A stretch of DNA of 63,452 bases, the filler included, from Rhabdomonas costata (lineage: Eukaryota), in the NCBI GenBank assembly GCA_019059605.1. It is 50 parts of 50 records of this genome, joined end to end, with 100 filler letters (N's around TTAATTAATTAA, not from the genome) between each part and the next. Parts side by side here need not be neighbours in the genome. Positions count along the whole stretch, not along the records: positions 52,117 to 53,287 come from JAHMHO010025179.1; positions 53,388 to 54,558 come from JAHMHO010025180.1; positions 54,659 to 55,829 come from JAHMHO010025181.1; 47 more parts are not named here. One strand, 5' to 3'. Below, piece by piece: positions 49,234 to 58,369 of this stretch. A program made the translations under genes and the position numbers. How positions within the stretch are numbered: the stretch's first letter is position 1; every line of letters begins with the position of its first letter. A model generated the notes under the pieces. That model ran no database searches, was not told where the DNA came from, and worked only from the letters and a program-made list of their open reading frames with translations.

Positions 49234-52167
49234 GTCTCCTGTGTGCCCGTCCGTGGCTAGAAAGAGGAGAGAGCTGTGCTGTTGTTGTCCTCATCCATCA
49301 TCGGTCCCCGGAATGGCTCGCGTGGTTTGAAGGTGTTTTCTAATCATTGGAATATCGGTCACGAAAAGAGTTACCACTTCGAAGTACGAAGTGCCCTGAA
49401 GGGACATATGGGCATTTCGTACTTCGAAGTGGTAACTCTTTTCGTGACCGATATTCCAATGATTACAAAACCCCNNNNNNNNNNNNNNNNNNNNNNNNNN
49501 NNNNNNNNNNNNNNNNNNTTAATTAATTAANNNNNNNNNNNNNNNNNNNNNNNNNNNNNNNNNNNNNNNNNNNNGGGTTTGTTTCCTACTTTGAAGTGTT
49601 CAGCTCTTCCGTGTTCTTGTGTTAATAAAACGGACGTTGGGGGGAGGGAGTAAAACTGCTACCACACGTTGAAGAAGACTTTATAAAGGCCCTTCAGGCG
49701 ACGTTCCCCGCTTCGCTTCCAAAAAAGAACGCTGTGCCATTCGGCCGCTGGTTCAGTCCTTTCCCGAATCACATGCTGACGTGCCGAAACTTAAATGCGA
49801 TTTCGAGGGTGCTGGGATCGCGTTCCTAACCAAATTGAATTTTAAGATAACAATCGATAGGCTGTTTTACCGGTGTCACTCGGTAAGTAGTCGGTGAACG
49901 CTCAGAATTGGGCCTTGACATGCGGTTCAGTGTTTGTAAACGTCAATGATCTGTCCTCTTTAGTTCGAGTTTGACGTTCCCTGAAATTGCCTTCTGTGTC
50001 TCGAGAGGTGCTCCAATGAAGGCATTGAAAGGGTGAAGGTAAGCGGCAGATGAAGTGGGGTGCACCTGGAACCGGGTTGGACCTGGACCAACCACACCAG
50101 ATAAGTGAGGGCAGTTGACACACACAGCACATGAATCCCCTCCTTCGAAGAACCAGTTCCTGCTCCCTGCTCGTCCAGGTTCCCCAGATAGAAATTGCCT
50201 TGCCTTTTTCAAATGCACAAGTTCAAGTGAATGTGAGCAAATTGGGTCTCGTGTGTCGTTTGGCAGAGAGTTTGCCCGGACCTCTGTTGCCACCGACCAG
50301 AGGCCAGGCTCCCGATGCCCTTTGCTTCGGCGGCGTCGAATCCCCTCCCTTGGAGCACGGAATCTTTACCCGCCGCGGGTTGGGACTGTCCTCGCCCATT
50401 GGTTTGCGCTTGGTGGCTTGGTGGTTTTGTGGGACTGGTGATGAGATCTTCTGCCGTTGGTTGATAGTTGTCTCGAAGGTCTGTCGCTAATTGATCAACA
50501 AAAATTAGCTAAGTGTTTTCTTTCATGGTTTCTGCACCTAACGAGAACACGAAACCGCACCCAGGGAAGAGGGCAACGGGCAGTTACAGATCAGAGGCCG
50601 GTTCGACAGAGATCCGTAAGAAAGAATGCAGAGACGTTGACTACGCAACAATACTCCACGAATCAAGGAAACAAGAATTACATTGCCCCCGAATATCATC
50701 TCATTTGCACAGCAGTGGTGAACGCAGGATCGGCCAACCCACCCCNNNNNNNNNNNNNNNNNNNNNNNNNNNNNNNNNNNNNNNNNNNNTTAATTAATTA
50801 ANNNNNNNNNNNNNNNNNNNNNNNNNNNNNNNNNNNNNNNNNNNNTGTGTTGGGTTTTTTGGGCTTGGAATTTTGCCCCCTTTCCCGGCCTCCCGGTATA
50901 GTGGAATTTTCCCCTAATATGGTTTTTTTAATTCCTGGGTCATGCCCTTTCAGAAAACCACAGGACAGCCAAGGGCGTTCTGGCGATAGACTCCCAGCCG
51001 GATGTTGTAGGGAGCAAGCCCTGCTGGATCTCATTTCCCAGAGTTTCGTTGACGGGGGAATCCCCTTCCTGGTGGCAATTGGCCACATGCCTTTGGTGGC
51101 AAGCCGATGGTCTCTGCACTCACCCCGTGTCCTTGAAAGTTCTCACCGTCGGTCTCCCCGTATGTATGATGTATGATGAAAAATAGTCGGCCATAGTGAC
51201 GGCTCCTGGTTGCGGGTCGCCACCTTTAGCTTAAGTCGAATGGGGGAGCCTCCATGTCGGGGAGGTGAGAAAACGGCCCTCCCTAGGCCGGTCGATCTCC
51301 CAACGCCTGCCCTGACTTTGGGGACGTTTCCGCTGCTTAGGGTTGTCGGTGTACACGCCACCAGGGGTGGCAATGCTGGGTAGTCTGTGTGGGTCGAGCG
51401 AACCGCCTTGGGTCTCTCACACTCCCAGGTTCTGCGAGCCCGGCAGGGCCGCCTTCCTTGGAGGTAGGCTCTGCCCGGTTGCAGAGTACACGTCTCCGAG
51501 GGCGTTGGTTTGGTAGTAAGGTTCGCCAGCGCAGCGCACGCCTTCTTCCGCATTAGGGCCCCCAGAGTCGCTCCTCAACGCCACCAGATGAGGCGCTGTC
51601 CGGGGAGCAGCTCTGGTGAAGTAAACGGGGATAGTGGGGGCCTCCGCCTCCCACTGGGCTGGGGAGGAGCTCCGGGCTCCGAAGTTGGGGGTCGCGTCAG
51701 GGTGCTGACGTGGCGAGTGCCAACCCAGCGGGCTCGCTCAAGGCGAACTGTAATGAAATAGTCAACCCGCTCTTTGCTCACCCCCCTCCCTAGTCAGAGC
51801 TCCACGAGCGGGGGGTGGGGGTGGATTAATGCAAGTCGAGATGAACGTCTCAAGGCACACATCAAAAAAAGTAGAGAGGGGTGAGCTGCGGAAACCCTCC
51901 ATCAAGCAAAGCAGACATGGCACTGCAGTTAATAATAGCTCATGCTATCATTATTTCTATCCTAAGAACAGTAGTTACGAGCAACCACGATAAACCAGTA
52001 GAGCGGAGTGGGGTTTNNNNNNNNNNNNNNNNNNNNNNNNNNNNNNNNNNNNNNNNNNNNTTAATTAATTAANNNNNNNNNNNNNNNNNNNNNNNNNNNN
52101 NNNNNNNNNNNNNNNNGGTGTGGTGTCAGTATGAAAGTACTTGGTTCTGAACCCTGTGTCGTCGCGT

Positions 52168-53283
52168 CTATTCGTTGATCCAGTCTTCTGCTGGCTGCAT
52201 CTGGATGGGCGCGCATAGAGGACCATCAAAGTAGATGGGAGTTGGCTTTTTAATGGCTTCTGCGATCAGAGCACTGAACATCGCTGATTCATCCATCGGT
52301 TCTCGCGACAGCGCATCAGAGGGTGAGTTAAGTCTCCCCGGTATGTGGGTAATATTGAGCGAGAACGCCTGTAGTTTTTCTAGCCATCTGATTTGTCTGG
52401 GTGCAGGGCGGGGGGTTGTAGTTACATGAGTGCGGAGTTGTAGGTATAGACGTGCACTTCGGCACCCAGTAGGTAATGACGCCATGCCTCTAGAGAATTC
52501 ACCAAGGCTAGCATTTCTTTTTCATGAACCGGTTAGTTCGTTTCTGCGTGTTAACGTTTCCGATATCCGCAAACAACAAGCCGTATGTCTCCTTTCTCGT
52601 CGTGTTGTGACAGGGTTGCGCCGACACCAATTTCTGAAGCGTCACTGTGGAGAATAAGTGGCTTGGACAAATCATTAGAACGGGGTGTTTGAGGAGTCGG
52701 CGTTTGAGTTCATAGAACGCTTCGGTTTTTCTCTCCCCACTGCCAATCTTGGTGCTTCTTCATTAGATCCTTTAGGGGCGCTGCAACGGTAGAGTAGTCG
52801 TTGGTAGAAACCACAAAGGCATAAGAAACTTTTCACGTCAGTGGGGTTGCGAGGGGTTAGCCAAATGTGGACTGCTGCCAGTTTTTCTGGAATGTGGCGG
52901 ACACCTTCGCGTACAACGATGAAACAACAGTACTTAACTCCCGGTTGACAGAAGGAGCACTTCTCCGGGTTGGCAAAGAGATGGTTCTTGTCAAGTCGTT
53001 CGTACACTTGTCGGATGGAGTGCAGGTGTTCCTCAAGCGCGTTAGTGAAGATTAGCTTATCGCCAATGTACGCTTCGGCAAAATCACTTAGATCGGACAG
53101 GACAAAGTCCATCGTCTTTTGAAAGGTAAGTGGGGCGTTACACAACCCAAATGGCATGACCCGGTAGTGAGACGTGACATACTTAGTCTTAAAGGCAGTA
53201 CGGTGAACGTGATTCGGGTACACTCGGATTTGGTGAAATCCAGAGTTGAGGTCAAGCTTGGTGAAGTAGCAAGCCTTCCACAC
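52168..53283 (-). mobile_element. Degenerate Ty3/gypsy Pol (RT + RNase H)
   Basis: FTKLDLNSGFHQI..RTAFKT..VMPFGLCNAP.TFQ..YIGD (YxDD mutated)..KCSF; RQIRWLEKLQAF..ITHIPGRLN..SDALSR; frameshifts. Confidence 0.95.
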
Positions 53284-53531
53284 AACCNNNNNNNNNNNNN
53301 NNNNNNNNNNNNNNNNNNNNNNNNNNNNNNNTTAATTAATTAANNNNNNNNNNNNNNNNNNNNNNNNNNNNNNNNNNNNNNNNNNNNTTGTTTTTTAAAG
53401 ATTTTAGAAAACGAACGGGAAGTAAAACCAAGACCGTTGAAGAAGAAATAGAAGCGATCAAGAAAAAGAAGGTTTACAGCAAGGGATATATTATTAGGAA
53501 AAATTATTATTATTAGGAAAAAGAAACTTGA

Positions 53532-53851
53532 GGAACTGCGGATGATGTTTGTCAACATGATCAAACGAGAAGATGTGGTGACTGTGACGAAATAAAACCC
53601 CTTAGTGAGTTCTACGGAAAGAAGGTTGTCATATGCAGAAGTTGCATAAGAGAAATCAATACCAGAAATTCCCGCGTGAGGGAAAAGAACGCGCAAACAC
53701 AAGTAACCTGTGAATGTGGGGCAACTGTTCTTAAAAGGGGGTTTGCTCGGCATAAAGGTCCAACATTCACACCAAACTACTAAATAAATCTGAAAATGGA
53801 GTTCACATACCCCATTTTAACTTTTACAACAATATAAAAAATCTCAAATAG
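53532..53851 (+). pseudogene. Zinc-ribbon + CECG-type C2H2 finger protein (one frameshift)
   Basis: RRCGDCDEIKPLSEFYG..ICRSC...VTCECGATVLKRGFARHK, frame change, then SNIH. Confidence 0.65.
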
Positions 53852-53856
53852 TATAA

Positions 53857-54230
53857 ATGATAGAACATTGCGGAAATTGTGAAGCAACAATTCAAAAAAC
53901 ATTGTATGGTTTGTGATAGAGCAATATGTCTGAAATGTGATACATATTCAAAACATAATGGACACAAATATTTTTTATACTGTGAGGAATGTACAAAATT
54001 TCAATGTTTTTTTTTTACGTTGTAAAGGTTATCTCGAAACGTGCTTGATCTGTCATACCTTATTTTGCGTAGTTTGTGATGATGGAGCGGTAGAAACGGA
54101 ATATGACGGCGACATTGCCTTTTGTCGGAAACATAGACCATTAAGAGTAGATGATTTATATTTATAGCTTGTCAAAACGTATAATGAAAAATTAACTCCC
54201 GAGGAAATAAGAACAAAATTATTATATTAA
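53857..54230 (+). pseudogene. CxxC-repeat Cys-rich protein (homopolymer frameshifts, internal TAG)
   Basis: MIEHCGNC..CMVC..ICLKC..YCEEC..TCLIC..FCVVC..FCRKH. Confidence 0.6.
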
Positions 54231-54425
54231 ACTATTCTATATATGAATTGCGTTGCTACAAATACTGATGCGCTGGTTCTAGTAAAAAGAAGTAAAATAA
54301 TTCAGCTCTATAATGAATTAATTGAAGCAAAAATATAGCATTACAAGATCGAAACAAACACTGAAAAAATAGAAAACATAAAAAGTAAAATACTAGAACT
54401 CATAGCACTTTTAGAGAAAGTATAA

Positions 54426-54461
54426 AAATAATAATTGATGACAAACCATCAATTTTTATTT
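54426..54461. terminator. AT-rich hairpin between convergent stop codons
   Basis: 15-bp stem with one mismatch (AAATAATAATTGATG / CATCAATTTTTATTT), 6-nt loop; + strand TAA ends at 54425, - strand TAA ends at 54473. Confidence 0.6.
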
Positions 54462-55077
54462 AATTAAACTATTTATTCAGACCCAAAATTATATCTACCA
54501 TTGTTACAACAGCCACCGTTACAACAACCTTCACATTGTTTCATCATTTGATCAGTAANNNNNNNNNNNNNNNNNNNNNNNNNNNNNNNNNNNNNNNNNN
54601 NNTTAATTAATTAANNNNNNNNNNNNNNNNNNNNNNNNNNNNNNNNNNNNNNNNNNNNTGTGGTGGGTGTGGTTGGGGTTGTGGGTTCCATCTCGGTGTG
54701 TCTGTGTGAGTATGCGTGTGTGAATTAAAGAGGAGGAGTGCGGCGGTATTTGCACAAGGCTATGTTGTCAAGCAACTGTCCACGCAGGAGGACAATGCAG
54801 AAAGGGAAGCGGGAACTAGGAGAGAACAGTGGTGCAGCGTATAAGCAAGAATAACCATCTGGTGCGCAACGAATGAAAAGGAATGGTCCAGACGGAGGGG
54901 AGGGGAGGGGGGATCGCCAAGACCATTCTCAGCAAAACGTTAGGTTAAATATGTGCTTTCCCAAAAACGCGGGAGGGTAGAGCGCAGGGCAAGAAAGGCG
55001 AAAGTGGGTTGGGTAAGGAGAGGAGGAGCGGAAAGGAGGAGAGGACGAGGAAAGGAGGACAGGAAGAGCCCACATGC

Positions 55078-57100: not shown

Positions 57101-57380
57101 NNNNNNNNNNNNNNNNNNNNNNNNNNNNNNNNNNNNNNNNNNNNTTAATTAATTAANNNNNNNNNNNNNNNNNNNNNNNNNNNNNNNNNNNNNNNNNNNN
57201 TTTTGTTTATTTTTTGGGTTTTGGGTTTCTCCCGCAGGACACGGCTCCCCCTGCCACGTTGTCCTATCCCTTAACCTTGGAGAGGTAGGTTCGGACCGGT
57301 GCCCGGGGTCACTGCGCGAGCGGGAGTTTTTTTTTTTTGGGTTGTGTGTATGTGTCGCTCTCCCTCCCCCTCCTCGCTTT

Positions 57381-58369
57381 TGGCTGCGGGATCACCACTG
57401 ACTGCTTCGCTGGATACCTCCGGATGTGAAACGGGTACTCCCATTCTCGATCGTAGAGCGCTGTACGCACTTTCCCATCTTGTTCGTATACCTGGATCCC
57501 GATATAGGTGACGCTTGCTCCTTCTCCGGTTGTTGTGTAGCGCATGCCATACTGGTCTTCTGAGGGAATCGGTGCGGGGGCATATAGGTCGTCGAGAAAT
57601 CTACAATTTGTCATCGTCCGGAGTTCCGCTTGCTTCACGAAGTCCCTCTCGGCCACGTAACAGAAGATGTTTGACAGCTGTGGCGAGGGTGAGATCCCAA
57701 TTGGGATTCCTTTGATTTGCCTCCTGATGGTGCCCCCGTTAACAATGTAGCAACGCCCCAGGACCCAGCGGAGGATTTGCACCACTTTCTTTATTGGCCA
57801 CGAGGTAATCGCATCTTCGTTTCCCCCAACTATCCATCCCTCGCGCGTCACTTCGAGTTCTTCTCCGTTCACTCCTCTTTTTTCGGCTTCGAAGTCACGC
57901 GCCTCTCTGAGGGCCTCTTCGACTCTCCTCAGCAGCTCCGCATGCGGGATATTGGTGTACATGTCCCGGAAGTCTACTGTCCTGAGTGGCTTCCTGCGAG
58001 TTTTTGTTGCTGCAGTCGGATCCAACCACCAAAATCCTGAACACTCTCCACTATCCAGTAGGCCCGCTTGCCCGTCTCGGTGAGTCTGCGCTCGTCTTTT
58101 CGCCTTAACCAGGCAAGCGCTGTTTGCAAGATCTCGGTCAACGCCTCCTGCGGCTCTGCCAACGGCTGTTTCGGCTTCCCTTTGTGCTTCTGCTTTTTCG
58201 TGCCGGCTTCTGCTCCTGACCTGACACCCACAATTGGGCGCCAGCGCTTTTTCTTGGACTTGTAAATGCCATAGAGATACGGCACTCCGTCTCCCAGTGT
58301 TACTTCCTCTTTCTCCGCTTCCCGCCTCATCTCTTCGCGTAGCTCGTCCCAGGTCTTACTCTCCTCTTC
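57381..58369 (-). mobile_element. Penelope-like element reverse transcriptase (Naiad/Chlamys-like), one frameshift, 3' truncated
   Basis: PYLYGIYK..RWRPIV; YWIVES; TVDFRDMYTNIPH; QIKGIPIG..SPQLSNIF; RFLDDL; TALYDRE.EYPFHIRRYP. Confidence 0.85.

Follow-up and report, generated by a model that had tools for sequence, protein, structure and literature searches.

A single AT-rich contig of the Rhabdomonas costata assembly (JAHMHO010025180.1) raises the question of whether viral DNA is present among the sequences of this protist and, if so, whether it belongs to the nuclear genome. The window, by which we mean the whole 63,452-nucleotide stretch of DNA that was analysed, consists of 50 unrelated contigs of 1169-1174 bp each, separated by N/TTAATTAATTAA spacers, and the contig under study (53388..54558, no strand assigned) stands alone within it as 1171 bp with artificial N spacers on both sides. 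Its GC content of 31.7% (0.317) is below that of all 49 other contigs (0.404-0.578; mean 0.519, sd 0.031; z = -6.5), none of which is similar in composition, so the AT-richness that an earlier reading of the sequence alone had remarked on is borne out. This outlier status rests on GC, because the trinucleotide signature of the contig, once corrected for base composition, ranks just 10th of 50. Our preferred reading, which we hold tentatively, is that the contig may be a fragment of an uncharacterised AT-rich large DNA virus of eukaryotes from the giant-virus/Polinton-like gene pool. Foreign viral DNA would have been sequenced along with the protist and assembled into a separate, low-quality contig of 1.17 kb, and the fragment would carry densely packed small accessory genes.

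The packed small frames described by this sequence-only reading were all located: the 1171 bp accommodate five small genes or gene ends, set 5-75 nt apart. On the + strand, the 3' end of an upstream gene (53388..53516; 42 codons that run in from the contig edge to a TAG at 53514-53516) is followed by ORF A, a two-module zinc-finger protein (53542..53851), by ORF B, a tandem B-box-like, Cys/His-rich and CxxC-rich protein (53857..54167), and by a short helical, coiled-coil-like ORF (54243..54422), which runs from an ATG at 54243 to a TAG at 54336-54338 (31 codons) in a frame that continues open beyond it to a TAA at 54420-54422. On the - strand lies the terminal part of a convergent ORF rich in Cys, Gly and Asn (54473..54558); it either runs off the contig edge or starts from an ATG at 54547 and counts 24 codons. 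Pfam searches gave no family match for the upstream gene end, the helical ORF or the convergent ORF end. Stops number 14 per 390 codons in frame 1, where all three kinds occur, versus 33-34 in the other two + frames. An exact 15-nt direct repeat on the + strand, in two copies 19 nt apart (53489..53522), spans the upstream gene end and the spacer before ORF A.

ORF A is read across three frames. Its candidate ATG is at 53542 in frame 2, and its core (53532-53783, frame 1) holds a CxxC..KPLSEF..CxxC ribbon from 53574 and a C-x-C-G finger from 53703; past the A run at 53754-53756, the second finger His and the tail lie in frame 3, up to a TAG at 53849-53851. In an AlphaFold model (pLDDT 85.6), the beta-hairpin ribbon is followed by a long helix and then by a beta-beta-alpha unit. 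ORF A is most likely a DNA-binding protein with two zinc modules, the first being of the ribbon type found ahead of HNH/endonuclease VII domains in mobile nucleases and the second a predicted beta-beta-alpha C-x-C-G-x10-H-x5-H finger of the type that ends GIY-YIG/Bro-N proteins of giant-virus contigs; what remains of the gene contains no nuclease domain.

The ribbon matches PHROG 1035 (endonuclease VII; E = 2.5e-5) over profile positions 59-145 of 271 only, which is the zinc ribbon part, and its CxxC...KPLSEF...CxxC pattern is common to the N-terminal ribbons of phage and giant-virus HNH and endonuclease VII proteins. Among phage records, ORF A matched only a 63-aa protein that has the ribbon and no finger (E = 2e-3). 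The His-Me (beta-beta-alpha-metal) catalytic domain that marks endonuclease VII/HNH proteins is missing from ORF A, which had no Stc1, Endonuclease_7 or HNH match in Pfam. Among 22 scanned HMMER relatives, 11 carried Stc1, three Endonuclease_7 and three HNH domains; in contrast to the Stc1-type tandem zinc finger (PF12898, PDB 2luy), ORF A has a single ribbon. Fold searches with ORF A returned nothing at E <= 0.001 in either the PDB (2luy, E = 0.63; PacI, E = 0.34) or BFVD, where the best rows, above E 0.001, were HNH/intron-encoded endonucleases of phages and giant viruses mixed. KPLSEF-type ribbons were present in 120 IMG/VR loci with GC of 0.22-0.67, and in none of the 120 did the same ORF carry the finger. 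Judged by its sequence pattern, the ribbon is undiagnostic of virus type, being widespread in phages and giant viruses alike.

The CECG finger, claimed at the outset to be viral in type, proved to be a module common to AT-rich giant-virus-type contigs: 30 of the 52 IMG/VR loci retrieved with its DNA pattern carry the full C-x-C-G-x10-H-x5-H finger, although IMG/VR holds viral contigs only and the scan therefore says nothing on absence from cellular genomes. GC was 21-37% in 29 of these 30 loci, some of which come from long contigs (223, 192 and 118 kb). In the shortest of these three, a 118-kb record with a completeness rating of 27%, a 1771-aa open frame contains PolB. One finger-bearing record is labelled GVMAG, a term used for giant-virus MAGs in one report (PMC13524828). 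Domain scans of 37 of the 42 flanking ORFs found GIY-YIG fused to the finger gene in three loci and Bro-N in one, along with Pox_A32 (A32-type ATPase) neighbours above the cut-off in two loci, both on 4-kb contigs. It is through the finger, then, that ORF A shares modules with giant viruses, by way of the 118-223 kb contigs, PolB, the GVMAG label and the Pox_A32 neighbours. One 8.9-kb finger record, rated 46% complete, falls in the size range of virophages and Polinton-like viruses; no capsid was found in it, and its large ORFs had no Pfam family. Searches of two giant-size finger records for capsid, VLTF3 and A32 found nothing. Abundant as a module in giant-virus-like contigs, the finger is unnamed in Pfam, and the 219 relatives of one family member in the protein collection are all annotated as 'hypothetical'.

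A profile built from 28 unique finger segments matched ORF A alone among 2378 six-frame pieces of the window (E = 9.7e-11; next-best match, E = 0.1), with E-values that are partly circular because the family was gathered with a pattern derived from ORF A itself. The match (38 bits) covers profile positions 4-28 and breaks off at 28 of 43; frame 3 picks the profile up at positions 29-40, with the second His correctly spaced, so that frame 1 supplies the Cys pair with the Gly and the first His, and frame 3 alone the second His. The frameshifts reported by the sequence-only reading are accordingly present in the contig sequence. GIY-YIG, Bro-N and lysine-rich repeat proteins of AT-rich, giant-virus-like IMG/VR contigs share with ORF A both the finger signature and a preceding basic helix; in those proteins the finger comes after GIY-YIG or Bro-N and 'EYY..NKE'-type repeats, whereas ORF A has the KPLSEF ribbon in front and no nuclease domain, and identity outside the finger is low. 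None of 50,697 phage records matched the finger protein L016 at E <= 1.

Close relatives of ORF A were not found. Among 1.84 billion representatives there were 23 matches (best E = 7.8e-8) and no close homologue. Two metagenomic proteins, P0009 (166 aa) and P0007 (221 aa), from source contigs of 1.2-1.5 kb, have the same module order of CxxC..K(P)..CxxC ribbon, helix and C-x-C-G finger at 35-36% identity to ORF A. The nearest Atlas cluster (score 0.94) is 100% viral, most often Nucleocytoviricota. Word-indexed protein searches with ORF A and the ORF B tail returned zero candidates, and scans with the single ORF A protein returned only a 13-residue chance match in IMG/VR and nothing in JGI metagenomes; its one match in prokaryote genomes, within an acetate kinase gene, was rejected as chance. 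P0009 found nothing in IMG/VR, and P0010 found there only relatives of its GIY-YIG end (L002-L006), all without the finger. A tighter DNA pattern (C-x-C-G-A-T-V-L-K-R) had zero matches in IMG/VR, and when all ORF pieces were run by tblastn against the fetched IMG/VR loci, only the ORF A finger matched.

ORF B begins with an ATG at 53857 in frame 2, passes to frame 3 from the A6 run at 53894-53899 and to frame 1 from the T10 run at 54007-54016, and ends with a TAG at 54165-54167. Its middle piece aligns with positions 12-39 of 42 of the B-box zinc finger profile (zf-B_box, PF00643; E = 1.2e-4, 22.7 bits, below the Pfam gathering cut-off of 24.1). The first B-box ligand pair falls in the preceding frame, and the full set of eight Cys/His ligands, assigned by eye, is complete only with frames 2 and 3 combined. 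ORF B further differs from the canonical B-box in being split over three frames and in having a longer second module. It is probably a tandem B-box-like zinc protein, with predicted protein-protein contacts.

None of capsid, A32, PolB, VLTF3, D5 or integrase was found on the contig, nor were the virophage and Polinton-like markers (double jelly-roll capsid, penton, A32-type ATPase, protease, pPolB and integrase). Absence of hallmarks does not count against giant-virus membership, because the contig is only 1.17 kb long. Viral domains were likewise absent from the other contigs of the window, where scans of 56 of the 94 stop-free stretches of at least 120 aa gave just two RVT_1 matches. Were the contig viral, it would point to an unknown virus linked to the protist or its culture and would justify the binning of low-GC contigs.

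We placed four frame breaks. Two lie on three-base A runs, 53563-53565 (a tentative placement) and 53754-53756; the others coincide with the A6 run of 53894-53899 and the T10 run of 54007-54016. Since all four are on A/T homopolymer runs, sequencing errors in run length account for them no less well than decay, and the claim that the frameshifts signal a decaying element is not upheld. ORF A and ORF B are otherwise free of internal stops; the helical ORF has one in-frame TAG. In our view the breaks more probably reflect miscounted runs in a contig of thin coverage than genuine pseudogenisation. Real damage could account for the TAG of the helical ORF and for the stops that separate the upstream gene from ORF A. 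Homopolymer frame breaks in a short orphan contig of this kind should not be read as decay until the reads have been checked. The frameshifts and stops of a neighbouring retroelement contig were considered as a gauge of assembly error and set aside as uninformative, since that contig is a transposon copy.

How, then, does a free viral fragment compare with other origins? The viral-type finger evidence would apply equally to an endogenous giant-virus, virophage or Polinton-like insertion decaying by frameshifts in the protist nuclear genome, and two reports document endogenised giant viruses in protists (PMC11244446, PMC11890097), a precedent for such an insertion. The four frame breaks, the in-frame TAG of the helical ORF, and a TAG and a TGA that share one frame in the stretch from the upstream gene to ORF A speak for this reading; the exact 15-nt repeat at 53489-53522 is no homopolymer artefact and could have disrupted a longer gene. 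Yet every indel is on a run, and ORF A and ORF B are free of substitution-type stops despite four indels. Neither end of the contig has a host junction or host-like composition, both being AT-rich coding sequence bounded by artificial spacers, and the window contains no further viral contig. GC is still 20 points under that of the host, which indicates no amelioration. Integration thus found no backing, and what survives of the viral-element reading is its giant-virus-type finger module, without the integration or the decay. We regard an endogenous insertion as unlikely, and the same holds for its fuller form, a nuclear relic of a giant or Polinton-like virus with a previously unseen fusion of a phage-type KPLSEF ribbon and a giant-virus C-x-C-G finger. 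Such a relic would point to a virus lineage that lacks any close relative among the 15 billion proteins catalogued, and would record that the host was once infected; integration would add one more protist to the hosts of endogenised giant or Polinton-like viruses. Another view of the same breaks, that they are genuine and tolerated through polymerase slippage on A/T runs or a non-standard genetic code, would account for their position on runs, T10 and A6 included, and for most coding sequence lying in one frame, which has 14 stops of all three kinds. We find it very improbable, because two of the runs are just three bases long and the stops fall at sensible gene ends. A read-through or alternative code was also dropped; read-through is unneeded, since the frame 1 stretch between ORF A and ORF B overlaps the real frame of ORF B.

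Other candidate origins lie outside eukaryotic viruses. A fragment of a bacteriophage or an AT-rich bacterium that contaminated the culture would explain the KPLSEF ribbon, which is widespread in phages (PHROG endonuclease VII, E = 2.5e-5; PhiSTP2 gp045), the Endonuclease_7 or HNH domains in six of the 22 scanned HMMER relatives, and the nearest Atlas clusters of the ORF B tail, which are bacterial or phage at scores of 0.86-0.87, under the 0.9 lead level. A GAGGA located 7 nt 5' of the ORF A ATG resembles a bacterial ribosome-binding site, and the T-tailed hairpin that separates the convergent gene ends resembles an intrinsic terminator. Before ORF B and the helical ORF, however, there is no ribosome-binding-site-like sequence. 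By blastn the contig DNA was unmatched in 50,697 phage records, the finger module was unmatched in phages, and the prokaryote genome scan returned no true relative. B-box-like and beta-beta-alpha C2H2-like fingers, moreover, are uncommon in bacteria. We therefore consider a phage or bacterial source rather doubtful, somewhat more so than an insertion. AT-rich composition would also suit another cellular or organellar genome, such as that of a food organism, a co-cultured eukaryote or a mitochondrion with mobile-endonuclease ORFs, and organelle introns often carry mobile nucleases, with which zinc-ribbon modules are associated. A density of five genes in 1.17 kb, set just 5-75 nt apart, is nevertheless a poor fit to a eukaryotic nuclear source, and as to an organelle, we found no organellar genes, tRNA or rRNA on the contig and no Rfam match across the whole window, and high-copy DNA would normally be expected to assemble long and clean. 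An origin of this kind seems improbable. The tentative assignment to a large DNA virus of eukaryotes is the reading we retain.

Sigma-70 promoter-like sites numbered four versus a shuffle mean of 5.3, i.e. no excess. The mimivirus early motif AAAATTGA occurs once, within the hairpin, and TAAATG occurs once, at the start of ORF B; we rejected both as viral signals, single occurrences being meaningless counts in DNA of 32% GC. A second hairpin, after the frame-1 stop of ORF A (z = -2.3), was dropped as a terminator because it sits within the extended ORF A. The strong hairpin (54426..54461, no strand assigned) lies between the convergent gene ends and has 14 pairs, a 6-nt loop and a T-rich tail on the + strand, where it folds at -10.8 kcal/mol (z = -5.0, 0 of 200 shuffles), compared with -9.9 kcal/mol (z = -3.8) on the - strand. 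Hairpin-forming palindromes are described as transcript ends in Mimiviridae in an earlier study (PMC4402537), and by analogy this hairpin probably marks the transcript 3' ends of the convergent genes.

Contig 53388-54558 was the clear compositional outlier of the window, as the sequence-only reading had proposed, with a GC content of 0.317 against a mean of 0.519 in the other 49 contigs (sd 0.031, minimum 0.404; z = -6.5), and its trinucleotide signature, normalised for base composition, was unremarkable (rank 10 of 50). All four small frames named in that reading were found with their motifs. On the + strand, stops numbered 14 in the 390 codons of frame 1 and 33-34 in each of the other two frames. 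The last 42 codons of an upstream gene, which runs off the contig edge (53388-53516), are followed on the same strand by the core of ORF A, a two-module zinc-finger gene (53532-53783, frame 1), by the tandem B-box-like ORF B (53857-54167, in three frames), and by a helical ORF of 31 codons (54243-54338) whose frame, once past an in-frame TAG, remains open up to 54422. A Cys/Gly/Asn-rich ORF on the - strand converges on these genes, and its end occupies 54473-54558. At the end of the upstream gene, 15 nt are repeated exactly and in direct orientation, the copies being 19 nt apart (53489-53522). This gene shares frame 1 with the ORF A core; a TAG and a TGA stand between them, and the two may formerly have been a single gene.

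The ORF A core consists of a CxxC..KPLSEF..CxxC ribbon followed by the V-T-C-E-C-G of a C-x-C-G-x10-H-x5-H finger. Its AlphaFold model, built on a 31-row alignment, was confident (pLDDT 85.6) and comprises a zinc ribbon folded as a beta-hairpin, then a long helix spanning residues 36-54, and last a beta-beta-alpha unit (57-75) truncated by a frame break. A profile of 28 unique finger segments matched ORF A at positions 4-28 and stopped abruptly at His-Lys; positions 29-40 align with the frame-3 piece from 53756, which places the second His five residues past the first, and the break itself coincides with an A run (53754-53756). From there frame 3 remains open as far as a TAG at 53849-53851, five bases ahead of ORF B. 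Since frame 1 has no ATG before the first Cys and an ATG-ATG occurs at 53542 in frame 2, a further frame change is likely within 53545-53573, a stretch that includes an A3 run; of the four breaks, this one is the most tentative.

An exhaustive HMMER search with ORF A against 1.84 billion representatives returned 23 matches at E <= 1e-3 (best 7.8e-8) and none as low as 1e-10; the contig is an orphan fragment without close relatives. Pfam domains in 22 of these 23 proteins (one of 3295 aa was omitted) included Stc1-type zinc fingers (11), Endonuclease_7 (3), and HNH (3), so the ribbon would appear to be the DNA-binding module at the front of mobile nucleases; the match to PHROG 1035 (endonuclease VII) covers the ribbon part only. 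Six of the matches, all metagenome proteins, also carry the C-x-C-G finger (P0001, P0007, P0009, P0010, P0019, and P0020), and P0009 and P0007 share the two-module order of ORF A. Fold searches of the model against BFVD and PDB gave no match at E <= 0.001, the best BFVD rows being HNH or intron-encoded endonucleases from phages and giant viruses alike.

Judged by their distribution, the ribbon is widespread and the finger more telling. The ribbon DNA pattern occurred at no fewer than 120 loci in IMG/VR (GC 0.22-0.67 in those listed), none of those listed having the finger in the same ORF, and a Salmonella phage protein has the ribbon alone. A DNA pattern for V-T-C-E-C-G-x-x-V recovered 52 IMG/VR loci, 30 of which carry the full C-x-C-G-x10-H-x5-H; GC was 0.21-0.37 in 29 of these 30 and 0.31-0.65 in the 22 finger-less loci. 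The exception, L013 (4-2022; GC 0.44), is a 673-aa polyprotein-like ORF with a twice-like finger motif on a 3.3-kb contig of 44% GC, a context unlike that of the AT-rich finger contigs. Elsewhere the finger ends ORFs of ~110-235 aa, together with GIY-YIG (loci L031, L034, and L039) or lysine-rich repeats, and a 497-aa Bro-N protein (L053) has two fingers near its C-terminal end. Among the flanking genes (37 of 42 ORFs scanned, 5 redundant or antisense ORFs being left out), Pox_A32-type ATPases above the Pfam cut-off adjoin two finger genes.

Finger-bearing contigs reach 223, 192, and 118 kb, and one finger record is labelled GVMAG. The 118-kb record (G001, behind L046; rated 27% complete) encodes PolB (C1:29659-32193) within an open frame of 1771 aa, and no capsid, VLTF3, or A32 was found in this record. 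An insert of ~350 codons, possibly an intein, interrupts the PolB Pfam match at profile position 228. The small, virus-like record G003 (behind L061; 8935 bp) has a GIY-YIG plus C-x-C-G finger gene and two large ORFs (425 and 554 aa) without a Pfam family, and could, because of its size (8.9 kb, rated 46% complete), be a Polinton-like virus or virophage. Loci L008-L057 (e.g., L046 1368-1949) include a very well conserved, giant-virus-like, finger-terminated family of ~160-220 aa, without a Pfam family and often adjoining YbjQ_1 and thioredoxin genes; for one member, the protein collection lists 219 relatives, each annotated as 'hypothetical' and on contigs of at most 352 kb. In the Atlas, the cluster nearest ORF A (score 0.94) is a viral one whose most common assignment is Nucleocytoviricota, a lead only. 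Given that ORF A's motif was itself the bait for this family and that IMG/VR holds viral contigs exclusively, the result places the finger among the regular contents of giant-virus-like contigs, with no exclusivity implied.

The viral flavour of the contig is moderately supported, through this one module; the integration and decay that had also been proposed are unsupported. The contig has no host-like flank and no GC shift toward the host, and because the window is an artificial concatenation of 50 unrelated contigs (each 1169-1174 bp, ordered by size, with N/TTAATTAATTAA spacers), adjacent contigs carry no linkage information, leaving 1171 bp as the evidence base. As for decay, ORF B begins with its ATG at 53857 in frame 2; an A6 run (53894-53899) marks its passage into frame 3, and a T10 run (54007-54016) the next one, into frame 1. 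Its middle piece matches Pfam zf-B_box slightly below cut-off (positions 12-39 of 42, E = 1.2e-4), and the first ligand pair, absent there, is found in the frame-2 piece. Each of the four breaks falls on a run of A or T (3, 3, 6, and 10 bases long), and aside from the breaks ORF A and ORF B have no internal stops. Miscounted run lengths in a contig of thin coverage give just this pattern, although natural indels favour such runs too; neither an alternative genetic code nor programmed slippage is needed. Homopolymer artefacts do not account for the in-frame TAG of the helical ORF or for the 15-nt repeat before ORF A, and these two may reflect real damage. In our judgement, viral DNA that is free or contaminating and carries sequencing errors is roughly twice as likely as an endogenous, decaying element.

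An origin in a phage or bacterium remains a rival reading on account of the phage relatives of the ribbon, a GAGGA 7 nt ahead of the ORF A ATG, and a terminator-like hairpin of 14 pairs (54426-54461; -10.8 kcal/mol, z = -5.0, 0 of 200 shuffles as stable). Mimiviridae transcripts are described as terminating at palindromic hairpins (PMC4402537), and this hairpin is compatible with that rule and equally with a bidirectional intrinsic terminator. ORF B and the helical ORF, however, lack a ribosome-binding-site-like sequence, and phage records yielded neither a DNA match to the contig nor a finger match (finger protein L016 against 50,697 records, E <= 1). Organellar or other cellular DNA fits poorly with the gene density, no marker was seen, and an Rfam search found nothing.

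The other 49 contigs (40.4-57.8% GC) have low coding density, and a Pfam scan of 56 of their 94 long stop-free stretches matched only two reverse-transcriptase domains. Contig 52117-53287, which immediately precedes the AT-rich one, carries a retroelement RVT_1 on the - strand (E = 1.4e-22), with later domains in other frames and many frameshifts and stops; it is a host transposon copy in a degenerate state. A 348-aa open frame on the - strand (57312-58355), which matches RVT_1 weakly (E = 3.1e-7), is probably another retroelement. The longest-frame peptides of contigs 13983-15154 (40.4% GC, the second-lowest) and 19068-20240 (52.7% GC) are clearly similar, an indication of a dispersed repeat family of the host and not of a second foreign contig.
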